Part shown: positions 2,453-13,379 of the stretch, piece after piece | Layout of the letters: the number at the start of each line of letters is the position of its first letter | How positions within the stretch are numbered: position 1 is the first letter of the stretch | Virus record (IMG/VR): IMGVR_UViG_3300011871_000002 | Location: 154,702-218,701 of that record | Direction: 5' to 3' (one strand) | DNA from: a virus | Lineage: Duplodnaviria; Caudoviricetes | Length of the DNA stretch: 64,000 nt | Program-made: the position numbers and the translations under genes | Notes under the pieces: generated by a model | What the model saw: only the letters and a program-made list of their open reading frames with translations | What the model was told of the DNA's origin: nothing | The model's database searches: none

Positions 2453-4123
2453 ATGAACATGAAGCAATACACCGATCTCGTTCGTAAGTGCCTGACCCAA
2501 GGCAACATCCGTACCGACCGCACCAATACCGGTACCATCTCCATCTTCGGTCCCCAGATGGAGTTCGACCTGTCCAAGGGCTTCCCGCTCGATACCGGCC
2601 GCCAGCTGTTCCTGCGTGGCATCCTCGAAGAAAACTTCTGGATGCTGCGCGGTTCGACCGACAACAACGAGTTGGTCGAGCGCCGGGTCCACATCTGGGA
2701 CGAGTGGTGCAATACCGAAGTCGAATTCGATGACGATTTTGATAGTCGTCCTATTGTCTACGTAGAGCCGCGCATTAAAGATTATACGTCATACTACAAA
2801 CCTGATTCTTCTGGCGTTTCGGCACCCAACGGAACAATTGATGATAAGCTCCGCTCACAATGGATCAAAATGATGGATCGTTGTTATAATCCGTCCGCAC
2901 ATAACTACAGGTACTACGGAGGTCGCAATATCTTCGTTGACGCGCGTTGGCATATTCTTCAAAATTTCATCAACGATGTAAAACAACTTCCCAACTGGAA
3001 GCACAAACTGGCAGACTGGAACAATTATAATCTCGACAAGGATTATTTTAGTTCCAACTGTTATTCCCGAGAAACTTGTTTGTGGCTCAGTAAGCAAGAA
3101 AACGGCATCTATGGTTCGACCAATAGTACCATTATTGTGGTATTCCCTAATGGACATGTTGAACTGTTTATCAGTGTTTCACAATGTGCCGAAGAGTTGG
3201 AGGTTTCGCGGAGTTCGGTACATCGTTTTACAAAAAGCGTACCTGAAGTTCTGAAAGGTGAAAATAAGAAACTTAAAGGCATTCGATTCGGTATTCTGAG
3301 TCAACCCTTCCGTTATGCAATTCCAAAAATTGGTGATCTCGGTCCTATTTATGGAAAACAGTGGCGTTTTTGGGGAGAAGAAAAAATCACCAAAGCTACT
3401 GTGTTGGAAATCGTCAACAGTAACCTCAATGACGAAGTTCAAATGTTTACCGAACTTAGTAATCTTTTCAAAAATAACGGTATTCATTATTATTCGATCG
3501 CGCAGCGTATCGGTATCGCCGAAGACATGCTGGCCGCTGGCGTGGCCGAGAAGTTCACCCAAGCTGATCTGGATGAATTGAAAGCGTATTGCCAAAATAC
3601 CCAAAGCGAAGAAGGCGCTGCACTTACTGCTTTCGGGAAAGAGCGCGTGAACATGCGCCTCGCCCGATTCGGCATCCCGAAAACGACTACCCGCCGCGCC
3701 ACCATCGACCAGATCACCAAGCTGATCGACGACTTGAAGAAGCGCCCCAACTCGCGCCGTCACGTGGTCTCGGCGTGGAATGTGGCTGCTCTGCCAGACG
3801 AGTCGCTCACGCCCCATCAGAACGTGATGGCTGGCAAGATGGCACTGGCGCCGTGCCACGCGCTGTTCCAGTTCTACGTGGAAGACCGCAGTATTCAGGA
3901 CATGGTCGCGGAACTGCCGGAAAACGTACAGCAGGAATTCAAGTGGTTTAAGAAGGACAACGACCTGATCCACCTCGCTCAGGACATGCTCAGCCTCGAT
4001 GCACTTCCGCAACCGGCGTACTACGAAGCGATGTTTAACTTCGAAAAGCGTGAAAAGCTGATGTCATTCTTCTCGGAGCGCGGCATCAAAACCAAGAAGC
4101 TCTCCTGCAAGCTGTACCAGCGT
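2453..4123 (+). CDS. thyA: Thymidylate synthase exon 1, containing in-frame HNH endonuclease insertion
   Basis: [41 protein letters not shown] (catalytic Cys), KLSCKLYQR; interrupted by intron after the CGT(Arg) codon. Confidence 0.95.
2708..3331 (+). mobile_element. HNH homing-endonuclease domain plus NUMOD1-like HTH fused in frame within thyA
   Basis: W..MMDRCY..YYGGRNI.V..RW..NF..D and LDKD..YSRETC.W..N motifs, then [21 protein letters not shown]; abrupt AT-rich composition; lies between IWDEW and GDLGP. Confidence 0.8.
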
Positions 4124-4383
4124 TCCCATTAATCTGAGCGCCCTCTAGGAGTAATCCTAGTTGAATAATCTCTCTAATTGCTGGGAAGTCTCTTTGAGAC
4201 AATCAGCAGCGAAGCTCCTATACTGGAGAACGTTCAACGACTAGCTGAAAAGCGTAGACCCAAGCGGGTCGAAACGGGAGAGGTCCTCAAATCGAGGATC
4301 GTGATATAGTCTGCTCTGCATGGCGACATGCAGCAGTTCGTAAGAGAACGGGGAAAGCCTAGCGAACTTTCTCGAACATAATG
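4124..4383 (+). ncRNA. ORF-less group I self-splicing intron (T4 td-like, subgroup IA) in thyA
   Basis: P aattgctgggaa (4176), Q aatcagcagc (4201), R gttcaacgactag (4232), S gatatagtct (4303), P9 ctgcatg-gcga-catgcag, 3' end gaacataatG like the T4 td intron; U4123.G4138 P1 wobble; splicing restores YQR|SGD. Confidence 0.93.
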
Positions 4384-10887: not shown

Positions 10888-11130
10888 ATGCGCGAGCGCA
10901 GCGTCGCGACGGAACACGTCGGCAGTATCTGTACTCCGCAAAACATCGAAGAACGGCTCCTCACCCTACTGGCAGACGCCGCGGCATCAGGTCTGACGGT
11001 GGAAGTGGTCCAGCAGCCACTACACCCCCTGGCCATGGGCCACTACCGTGACCACATCGTCGTTCGTGAGTCGCGCGAAATGGTCAAGATGATCATGGAA
11101 CGCCCCAACCCTAAGAAGGAAGCAGCATGA
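10888..11130 (+). CDS. Hypothetical protein
   Basis: ORF between QueC-like gene and Tad1-like gene; start uncertain (10810 or 10888). Confidence 0.55.
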   Translation: MRERSVATEHVGSICTPQNIEERLLTLLADAAASGLTVEVVQQPLHPLAMGHYRDHIVVRESREMVKMIMERPNPKKEAA

Positions 11131-11528
11131 AAGCCACGCCAGCCAACCGCGAGATCAAGTACCACCACTACGGGGCGCATCCACCCGAAGTAACGGTTGA
11201 ATGTATCCAGCGCCCTGAGAAGATGGGGATGCGCGACTACTACGTCATCGGCTACCATGGTTTTCCGTACTACGGCAGCCAAGTACCAAAGTCGAACATC
11301 ATGGTGGAACTGGCGTTTCAAAAAGGTGCACCCCAGATTGCTGGCAACAACGGCATTACCAGGGAAGCACTGCTTGCCGTCGTCATCGATAGTCTCGAAG
11401 TATTGCAGGCTGGTCCCTACCCGTGCGAAGAAAACGCCAAAGCACTGGCCTGCCTCAAAGAAGGCATCGAGCACTTGCACGCTCGTTCGCGCCGGATGCA
11501 GCAAACCTTCATCGAACGGGACGTGTAG
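11127..11528 (+). CDS. tad1: Tad1-like anti-defence nucleotide-signal sponge
   Basis: FQKGA....NGIT.E.LL.VVID.L..LQAGPY.C.ENAKAL..L.E....L..R....IER.V matches the Tad1 pattern FQKG..GV...LL....DRL..FQ.GPF..RENA.AL...EEAL.W...R...R..R.V. Confidence 0.75.
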   Translation: MKATPANREIKYHHYGAHPPEVTVECIQRPEKMGMRDYYVIGYHGFPYYGSQVPKSNIMVELAFQKGAPQIAGNNGITREALLAVVIDSLEVLQAGPYPCEENAKALACLKEGIEHLHARSRRMQQTFIERDV

Positions 11529-11562
11529 GTAATTTTTTACTTGCATAATCAGTATGTTATGT

Positions 11563-12235
11563 TAGATACCAACTTTGGTGTCTGAAGTAAACTACCTGAT
11601 GACCCGTTAAAGCCGGGAGCCATCTTCTTGCAGGGCGTTGCCGTTCCTCCCTCCGGCGAATCGCTTAAACCTGCCCTCTTACCCAAAGAGGTGTATTGAG
11701 AAGACGGTGGGCTAAGACCCGCGAAACACTGGAGACTCCTGAAGATAATGGGAATGCTTCTGACGGCAACAGACCCCGTGGCTAACCCCCGCCGCGCTGC
11801 CGTGTTCGAGTGCTCCGTGTAGTAGTGACGCGTTACGGTACTCTATCCATAACCTCCCTAGGGTATGGAAACGCCTCGGGCTTCCAATCCGACAAAACCG
11901 TACGGCTAGATTTGCGGGTGGAACCGTCATGATAGCAAGTTGTACCGAGCGCCTATCCGCACGCCTCCCTTGGTCTGCGTCATGGTAGGGCAAGACACAC
12001 CTGACTCTTAACCGCAAGGAGGGAGAGGGTGGGATCGCGGACTGCGGTCGTTGTCTGTGTGCAGCCTGTAGCAATCTTCTCTCGTGGCTTGCCACTGCAC
12101 CTAGAACCCGCTGGGTGTGCATGAAACAGCAACTGGGATACTCTCGGGCGAGAGGGCTGTTGGATTGGACAGAAGATTCCTATGGAGTGCGCAGTAAGGC
12201 ATTAAGTGATCAGGTCAAGTTCTTCTGAGCTTGAT
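11563..12235 (+). ncRNA. Putative large structured non-coding RNA (~650 nt), family unassigned
   Basis: No credible ORF in ~760 bp; end-to-end helix 11594-11600/12209-12215 plus many local and long-range complementary segments; followed by a terminator. Confidence 0.65.
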
Positions 12236-12240
12236 TTTCG

Positions 12241-12267
12241 GACCACCCTTCGGGGTGGTCTTTTTTT
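12241..12267 (+). terminator. Intrinsic terminator
   Basis: gaccaccc-ttcg-gggtggtc followed by T7. Confidence 0.9.
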
Positions 12268-12293
12268 CCGACCATTAAAGAAACGAGAGCATT

Positions 12294-13379
12294 ATGTCAC
12301 TGAATTGGGATGAAGAAGCGCCGGCACAAACGGAACAAAGTACTGCACCGGCAGCTTCCGCGGGGCGGGTAAATGCAGAAGACAAGCGCATCATCAATGG
12401 CCAAACGGACGTCAACCAGCTGGTGCCGTTCAAGTACAAGTGGGCGTGGGACAAATACCTCGCCGGCTGCGCCAACCACTGGATGCCGCAAGAAGTGAAT
12501 ATGCAGCGTGACATCGAACTGTGGAAGAGCCCGAATGGCCTATCCGAAGACGAGCGCCGCATCGTCAAGCGCAACCTGGGTTTCTTCGTCACTGCCGACT
12601 CGCTGGCTGCCAACAACATCGTGCTCGGCACCTACCGCCATATCACCGCACCAGAATGCCGCCAGTACCTGCTGCGCCAGGCCTTCGAAGAGGCGATCCA
12701 CACACACGCCTACCAGTACATCGTCGAATCGCTGGGCCTGGACGAGCGTGAAATCTTCAACGCCTACAACGAGATTCCTTCGATCCACGACAAGGACCAG
12801 TTCCTGATCCCGTTCATCAACGTCCTGACCGATCCGGAATTCAAGACCGGCACCCTAGAAACTGACCAGCAGCTGCTGAAGTCGATCATCGTGTTCGCCT
12901 GCTTGATGGAAGGCCTGTTCTTCTATGTGGGCTTCACGCAAATCCTCGCCCTGGGTCGCCAAAACAAGATGACCGGTGCGGCTGAGCAGTACCAGTACAT
13001 CCTGCGTGACGAATCGATGCACGTGAACTTCGGCATCGACCTCATCAACACGATCAGGATGGAAAACCCGCAGCTGTGGACGCCAGCGTTCAAAGCCGAA
13101 CTGAAGGTACTGTTCCTGCAAGCGGTGGAACTGGAATACCGTTACGCCGAAGACACCATGCCGCGTGGTGTGTTGGGCCTGAACGCAACGATGTTCCAAG
13201 CGTACCTGCGCTTCATCGCCAATCGTCGGGCGGTGCAGATCGGTCTCGAACCCCTCTTCCCTGGAGAAGAAAACCCCTTCCCCTGGATGGCCGAGATGAT
13301 CGACCTGAAGAAAGAGCGCAACTTCTTCGAAACGCGCGTGACCGAATACCAGACGGGCGGTGCCCTGAGCTGGGACTAA
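12294..13379 (+). CDS. nrdB: Class Ia ribonucleotide reductase beta subunit
   Basis: [30 protein letters not shown] di-iron ligands, [11 protein letters not shown]. Confidence 0.97.

Follow-up and report, generated by a model that had tools for sequence, protein, structure and literature searches.

Which product is encoded between two genes of a jumbo phage where no credible gene can be found? The question arises for a 64-kb stretch of DNA, here called the window, which is the last part of a 218.7-kb virus contig in IMG/VR (IMGVR_UViG_3300011871_000002). The phage carries a major head protein of the phiKZ-type family phrog_3231, and by this protein its nearest cultured relative is Burkholderia phage FLC9 (43% identity). 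Between the stop of one gene at position 11528 and the start of nrdB at 12294, the window features a gene-free interval of ~760 bp. For this interval an earlier note, made from the sequence alone, had proposed a new, pseudoknot-rich non-coding RNA of ~650 nucleotides (nt). Our analyses leave hardly any doubt that 11540-12267 is a real and conserved non-coding RNA locus, and they support a stand-alone, large and highly structured one. We are also highly confident that its front third derives from a hammerhead ribozyme, a module that the earlier note had not recognized. The locus as a whole is probably a non-coding RNA gene of two modules, in which the hammerhead ribozyme precedes a structured RNA that it would release.

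Results

Absence of a gene

The open reading frames (ORFs) inside the interval are short or lie on the minus strand and none is credible as a gene, in agreement with the earlier reading. For the longest minus-strand ORF (136 amino acids, 11712-12122), a Pfam search gave no match. Translated similarity across the four closest homologues was spread over many frames of either strand and switched frame between genomes; hence there is no conserved reading frame. Both flanking genes are complete ORFs, namely a gene of 133 amino acids upstream (11127-11528) and nrdB downstream (12294-13379; Pfam Ribonuc_red_sm, E = 2.6e-89). The plus strand folds better than the minus strand: its minimum free energy lies 2.9 standard deviations below dinucleotide shuffles (z = -2.9), compared with z = -1.5 for the minus strand against its own shuffles. 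A fold no better than shuffled controls had been named beforehand as an observation that would speak against an RNA.

A scan of the RNA region with all 4227 families of Rfam 15 (cmscan) gave no match at gathering thresholds, and at E <= 10 the stretch 11450-12350 returned only terminator look-alikes and weak chance matches. No family model of GOLLD, ROOL, OLE, raiA, HEARO or other catalogued large RNAs matched the region, nor did group I and II introns or RNase P RNA even at E <= 10, and ARAGORN called neither a transfer-messenger RNA (tmRNA) nor a transfer RNA (tRNA) in the window. Both the novelty with respect to Rfam and the lack of intron, RNase P and tmRNA hallmarks, as claimed earlier, were thus borne out. 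RNase P was considered as an identity, as GAAAGCCGG and GAACCCGC resemble CR-I and CR-V, and was rejected for want of a P4 pairing and of an Rfam match.

Relatives of the RNA

A BLAST search with the RNA region had no match among 50,697 phage records. Searches by neighboring genes yielded mostly non-syntenic phages: relatives chosen by nrdB were not syntenic and had no such RNA, and the QueC-like and HAD-like neighbor genes led to no useful relatives. A search with the capsid protein gave the three closest genomes, G001, G002 and G003 (major capsid proteins 66-67% identical), each with a co-linear homologue of the RNA region in which nucleotide conservation is patchy. From one invariant 25-nt block we built the degenerate pattern CTNYCTGAWGANCCGTKNAARNCGG, which retrieved further members from IMG/VR and metagenomes; two of its matches, in genome contigs, were discarded. 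Another pattern, TCTGTGTGCAGCCNNTA, was too narrow and found just the three close relatives and chance matches. A looser pattern added members in related genomes, and BLAST with one member located the invariant block in the isolate FLC9, where it opens an unannotated gap of 507 nt. In FLC9 (LC667451.1, minus strand) the ribozyme equivalent lies at about 137809-137949 and the back domain at 137469-137816. At least 17 phiKZ-like jumbo-phage records contain a homologue, the cultured FLC9 among them.

In the following, group A denotes the window with G001, G002 and G003, and group B denotes five 300-kb phage contigs with FLC9. Other accepted members are L102, L128, L129, L094, L107 and L117, as well as L127 (genome G023), a stand-alone ribozyme module. 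Matches to the 5' motif that were discarded as coding or chance are L097/L103, L099/L106, L104, L110, L112, L113, L116, L118 and L119. Four doubtful cases, L099, L103, L104 and L118, were checked; these chance motif matches in coding ORFs fail the hammerhead descriptor. Hammerhead anatomy was counted on 15 sequences, 12 of them distinct, and pairing statistics were taken from a MAFFT alignment of 14 sequences.

A probable hammerhead module in the front third

Positions 11591-11826 of the window contain every core element of a hammerhead (Table 1), in an arrangement that is kept in all 15 sequences. The order is the same in every lineage: stem I, CUGAnGA, the stem II hairpin, an insert of two helices termed P2 and P3, GAAA, stem III, a U, a non-G and the 3' strand of stem I. 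Within CUGA(U/A)GA the fifth base, canonical N7, is the sole varying position. Stem III and stem I are separated by exactly two nucleotides, U and then non-G, in 15/15 sequences. The second of these, H17, reads A,U,U,C,A,C,C,C,C,U,C,C,A,A,A across the set and is never G. The A15.1-U16.1 pair that opens stem III is kept in 14/14 aligned sequences.

The helices that surround these nucleotides change in sequence and remain paired. Over 20 core pairs of the alignment 91.3% of positions were paired, versus 29-50% with the partners slid; 41 cells of the core helices were changed on both sides (4-9 in slid controls), and the covariation score was 0.41 (at most 0.11 when slid). The 5' strand of stem I directly precedes CUGAnGA. 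This stem of 4-6 bp is 97% paired across the 14 sequences with four of five pairs changed on both sides, and its variants include ACUAC/GUAGU, GCUAU/AUAGC, GCUCU/AGAGC, GCUGU/ACAGC and UCCGU/ACGGA. The stem II hairpin directly follows A9 and has the general form N-CCG / CGG-N' with a 7-nt loop, its closing pair being G-C in 10, U-A in 3 and C-G in 1 of the 14 sequences. Stem III is 88% paired, with five of six basal pairs changed on both sides and sequences that are unrelated between lineages; in group B it is a plain hairpin.

The insert between stem II and GAAA spans 30-130 nt across members. P2 shows compensatory change, with CCAUCUUC/GAAGACGG in the window versus CCACGUGC/GUACGUGG in G003, and its sub-helix P2b is formed by four different stems in the four group A genomes around a conserved A(C/U)CCA loop. 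P3 takes the form (G)(U)GGG-loop-CCC(R)C, with GGAG/CUCC in L107 and AAGG/CCUU in L094.

Furthermore, loop II (11607-11612) can base-pair with the leader that immediately precedes stem I, and the two covary across lineages (UUAAAG/CUUUGG in the window, UGCAA/UUGCG in group B, UUCAA/UUGAG in L107 and L117, UGAA/UUCG in L094). In the window, the partner CUUUGG (11573-11578) comprises the loop and top pairs of the leader hairpin. A hairpin of unrelated sequence lies ~10-15 nt upstream of stem I in L095, L105, L102 and L117, and in L129 the 3' end of a tRNA, 13 nt before stem I, occupies this place. The likely pairing of loop II with the 5' leader is the sole pseudoknot with comparative support. 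It differs from the three long-range pseudoknots for which the RNA had been called pseudoknot-rich in the earlier note; of these, 0-6 pairs are kept in relatives, and they are specific to the window. In natural hammerheads, pseudoknots that stabilize the active fold have been reported (Perreault et al. 2011, PMC3088659).

The module also occurs alone. In G023 (about 22.5 kb), L127:1493-1607 is a stand-alone hammerhead module of ~110 nt with P2 and P3 present and the large back domain absent, with a ribosome-binding site and an ORF of ~66 codons immediately behind it. The module hence looks like an autonomous unit.

The back domain and the 3' end

For group A, a structure was obtained with RNAalifold and manual curation, in which helices not kept in relatives were removed; among these were GAUG/CAUC and a helix between GGAAAGAA and the U-tract of the terminator, both predicted by RNAalifold. 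The resulting 150 pairs in 23 helices are paired in 90.4% of cells, versus 40-47% with partners slid by 1-3 columns, a percentage inflated by derivation of the structure from the same four sequences. The counts of double changes are less affected: 65 pairs were changed on both sides, versus 10-20 in slid controls. In 500 column shuffles these values were never attained. Several hairpins, such as P2b, P6, P8, P9 and the inner P12 helices, keep their loops on stems that differ wholly from genome to genome. Covariation among homologues, which the earlier note had asked of a true RNA, is hence seen both in group A and in the 14-sequence alignment.

Of the nested helices listed there, ccatcttct/agaagacgg (P2), tacggt/accgta (P7), tccata/tatgga (P8) and aatcttct/agaagatt (distal P12) all covary, and gcagg/cctgc falls in a variable sub-helix where other pairings replace it in relatives. 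The helix cccgcgaa/tttgcggg did not hold: three to five of its eight pairs are kept in relatives, and its 5' arm is P3 with the GAAA core. Likewise, the proposed pairing of the RNA ends, acctgat/atcaggt, keeps two to five of seven pairs, and its 5' arm belongs to the conserved hammerhead core. Both pairings are specific to the window.

In group A the back domain is arranged as P7 enclosing P8 and P9, then P10, the block AAGUUGUAC, GNRA-capped hairpins and P12. AAGUUGU and the GCAGCC...GGAGUGC motif of P12 recur in groups A and B, L102, L094 and L117. The lineages differ in their peripheral elements, in the order of these and, as read, in the distal sequences (CCUGUAGCAAUCUU, CCUGCAGA, CCUGUAAGA, CCGCAAGGUGUUC). 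The back part measures ~345 nt in group B including FLC9 and ~370 nt in the window, or ~445 nt with the 3' hairpin and terminator. By scan, the UUCG terminator pointed out earlier is a textbook intrinsic terminator, kept in G001-G003 with compensatory changes. In group B, FLC9 included, the RNA ends ~30 nt before the ribosome-binding site of the next gene, with no terminator. The terminator hairpin of the RNA (window 12243-12270) has a 93% identical copy at the opposite contig end (G000:C1:885-912), which suggests a reused terminator cassette.

At the 5' side, the promoter and late expression proposed earlier found no support: there was no sigma-70-type match, and the motif with TATG has no second occurrence in the 219-kb genome. 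A stretch similar to the proposed promoter lies upstream in one relative, G002.

Table 1. Features of the RNA locus, in positions of the window
Feature	Position	Strand	Basis or remark
5' leader hairpin (AGAUACC / GGUGUCU)	11564..11583	+	read from sequence
Stem I, 5' strand ACUAC	11591..11595	+	pairs with 11822-11826
Hammerhead core C3-A9, CUGAUGA	11596..11602	+	invariant CUGA(U/A)GA in 15/15 sequences
Stem II hairpin C-CCG / CGG-G, conserved 7-nt loop II UUAAAGC	11603..11617	+	100% paired in 14 sequences
P2 long helix 11620-11627 / 11700-11707, sub-helices P2a and P2b	11620..11707	+	compensatory changes
P3 hairpin abutting GAAA	11708..11722	+	present in all lineages
Core G12 A13 A14 A15.1 (GAAA)	11723..11726	+	invariant in 15/15 sequences
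Stem III 11727-11738 / 11808-11819, closes sub-domain P5 and P6	11727..11819	+	covariation
P5	11741-44 / 11757-60	+	within stem III sub-domain
P6	11763-68 / 11798-11803	+	6/6 pairs changed on both sides within group A
U16.1	11820	+	
H17 (A)	11821	+	
Predicted scissile bond	11821/11822	+	
Stem I, 3' strand GUAGU	11822-11826	+	
Downstream ornate domain, predicted 3' cleavage product core	11822..12193	+	group A covariation by helix
P7 (GUUACGGU / ACCGUAC), encloses P8 and P9	11832-40 / 11898-11905	+	group A
P12, 22-bp long terminal helix, GCAGCC / GGAGUGC motif at base	12058-12080 / 12171-12193	+	
3' hairpin	12215-12234	+	
Intrinsic terminator: 9-bp stem-loop 12240-12261, UUCG loop, U7	to 12268	+	terminator scan

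Genomic neighborhood

The gene downstream of the RNA varies between relatives, and nrdB is found there solely in the window. The upstream protein of 133 amino acids resembles the Thoeris anti-defence protein Tad1 (PDB 8kbe, E = 3.6e-7); it also matches a chain named gp184 (8y6v_I, E = 9e-9). Three lineages have Tad1-like genes no more than 3 kb away from the RNA, and in group B with FLC9 the Tad1-like domain makes up the C-terminal half of a cyclophilin fusion of 334 amino acids (L095:4126-5130, minus strand).

Genes for tRNA adjoin the RNA in three lineages (L107, L129 and L102). The tRNA lies ~350 nt upstream of the RNA in L102, and in L107 tRNA-Gly and tRNA-Leu directly follow it. In L107, processing of the tRNAs could thus generate the RNA 3' end, as would suit a product that is trimmed on its two sides. 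Just before these two tRNAs, L107:8110-8200 (minus strand) holds a T-arm-like hairpin, AAGGG-UUCGAUU-CCUUU, which ARAGORN did not call and which may be a degenerate tRNA or tRNA-like end.

A protein family of ~150 amino acids is encoded 0.7-4.4 kb downstream of the RNA (L102:3505-3960, plus strand; L095:2443-2934 and L107:3805-4275, both minus strand). The N-terminal YLD.EFN of these proteins resembles a DEDD exonuclease motif, and Pfam gave no match at E <= 0.01. Elsewhere in the window, a group I catalytic intron lies at 4092-4333 (Rfam RF00028, 81 bits, E = 5e-19).

A search for transcript data turned up no usable set. A wastewater run labelled RNA-Seq, and flagged as probably DNA, contained just two 151-nt contigs of the locus (11846-11996 and 12021-12171). 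Both fall inside the predicted 3' cleavage product and are too thin to serve as evidence. Two raw-read runs from the same wastewater study had no reads for the stretch.

Discussion

A probable two-module RNA

We infer cleavage, and with it a released 3' RNA as the functional product. Module 1 (about 11564-11826) would be a self-cleaving ribozyme of the type I hammerhead class, with a short stem I, a stem II of 4 bp with a loop that pairs with the leader, a stem III with an extra sub-domain, and the P2 and P3 insert. Once transcribed, the ribozyme would cut between A11821 and G11822, leaving a 5' fragment that ends in a 2',3'-cyclic phosphate and freeing module 2. The latter, a conserved and heavily paired RNA of ~370 nt (~445 nt with the 3' hairpin and terminator), would start with a 5'-hydroxyl. 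We consider it fairly probable that self-cleavage at this bond releases the back domain as a functional RNA. The discrete species of ~650 nt expected earlier would then be divided, in the likelier case, into one 5' piece of ~260-290 nt and one 3' piece of ~370-450 nt.

By analogy, our best guess is that the released RNA may resemble GOLLD and ROOL, as a stable RNA that the phage would use as a scaffold or a decoy while it infects the cell. A bolder version seems doubtful to us, namely that the released ~370-450-nt RNA founds a new ornate-RNA class with an infection-specific role while the hammerhead core works at a four-way junction. For such a role, possible candidates would be an RNA-only assembly like those of ROOL and GOLLD, or a decoy or sponge alongside the Tad1-like anti-defence genes.

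Departure from the canonical hammerhead and alternative readings

Several observations weigh against a cleaving, two-module RNA. In every member P2 and P3 part the 3' strand of stem II from G12, so that the three-way junction of hammerheads, in which stem II abuts both A9 and G12 and insertions beside the core do not exceed 1-2 nt, is not formed; contiguity of stem II with the core is stated as universal for hammerheads (Eckert et al. 2023, PMC10085705). Activity of this architecture and its membership in the class are hence putative. No hammerhead covariance model matched, at E <= 10 on 11450-12350 and at E <= 1 on six other members. Stem I has just 4-6 bp, P3 is only 82% paired on the MAFFT alignment, the structures were in part derived from the sequences on which they were scored, which raises the paired percentages, and group A has just four sequences. 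In group B, moreover, no terminator separates the RNA from the gene that follows, and it could serve there as a 5' untranslated region.

A contiguous canonical hammerhead was rejected, as GAAA does not follow stem II, and an alternative stem II, in which NCCG pairs with the strand before GAAA, shows mismatches in most lineages. Two helices between stem II and GAAA are absent from the hammerhead literature that we examined. Their insertion at the stem II boundary explains why the Rfam hammerhead models miss the module. We infer that it creates a four-way junction of the tandem-GA/stem III stack, stem II, P2 and P3, whose proposed arms are joined by 0-2 unpaired nt. A stacked-X form of this junction could keep stem II stacked on A9·G12 as usual.

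The broken contiguity, the missing Rfam match and the short stem I would also be compatible with a single uncut ornate RNA of ~680 nt, in which the hammerhead-like junction is a relic or a scaffold without cleavage. We regard this as unlikely. Across lineages with fully diverged helices, none of the 13 catalytic-core positions varies and H17 avoids G throughout, and a structural role would need neither the H17 rule nor the exact 2-nt spacing; moreover, the module is found alone in G023. Still less likely is a cis-acting processing or regulatory leader for neighboring messenger RNAs (mRNAs), which might trim the upstream Tad1-like mRNA or head the downstream gene. Bacterial and phage hammerheads often lie between genes of polycistronic RNAs (PMC3088659), and the short distance to the next ribosome-binding site in group B and FLC9, like the small ORF behind the lone module of G023, would suit such a leader. 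Against it, the downstream gene differs among relatives, in group A a strong terminator parts the RNA from that gene, and ~370 nt of covarying structure past the cut far exceeds the needs of a processing signal. We give next to no credence to a decayed protein gene, an intron or homing-element remnant, or a chance structure in a spacer. The minus-strand ORF of 136 amino acids and the group I intron elsewhere in the phage might hint at such an origin, yet the ORF lacks a Pfam match, homologue similarity switches frame and strand, no intron family matches at E <= 10, the flanking genes are complete, and covariation is far above controls.

Implications

If the two-module RNA is indeed cut as predicted, the hammerhead core would tolerate a large two-helix insertion at a boundary thought inviolable. 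This would widen the search space for ribozyme discovery and account for the misses of covariance models. Cleavage would furthermore mean that nucleus-forming, phiKZ-like jumbo phages carry a conserved, processed structured RNA of ~400 nt; in the literature that we searched, neither a hammerhead nor a large structured non-coding RNA is described for jumbo or phiKZ phages. With FLC9, which grows on B. glumae, there is a cultured carrier, so that cleavage, abundance, structure and knock-out phenotype are directly testable. The repeated proximity of Tad1-like anti-defence and tRNA genes offers concrete hypotheses for function.

Comparison with known systems

The module shares with the type I hammerheads of bacteria, prophages and phages (RF00163; PMC3088659) the order of blocks, all core nucleotides, ends that open at stem I, a phage intergenic context and, likely, the tertiary pairing of loop II with the leader. 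It differs in the helices inserted before G12 (30-130 nt), which would give a four-way junction instead of a continuous stem II, in a stem III that often carries a sub-domain of ~90 nt, in the lack of an Rfam hammerhead match, and in that its cleavage is predicted. The non-circularly permuted SGC and CSG hammerheads (Eckert et al. 2023, PMC10085705) likewise show that the core tolerates unexpected connectivity. In contrast to these, the RNA described here keeps the classical C-G-S (type I) order and alters instead the boundary between stem II and the GAAA block, which was assumed there to be uninterrupted. Like SGC and CSG, it was recognized via a conserved CUGAnGA inside an otherwise unclassifiable motif.

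GOLLD and ROOL often lie near tRNA genes, and some members of the present RNA adjoin tRNA genes as well. Further common traits with GOLLD and ROOL (Weinberg et al. 2017, PMC5737381) are a size of 400-800 nt, a multi-helix, non-coding nature and an origin in phages or prophages. GOLLD and ROOL form multimers in cryo-electron microscopy (bioRxiv 10.1101/2024.12.08.627333). Unlike them, the RNA described here matches neither family at E <= 10, is headed by a ribozyme module, and is carried by phiKZ-like jumbo phages of Proteobacteria.

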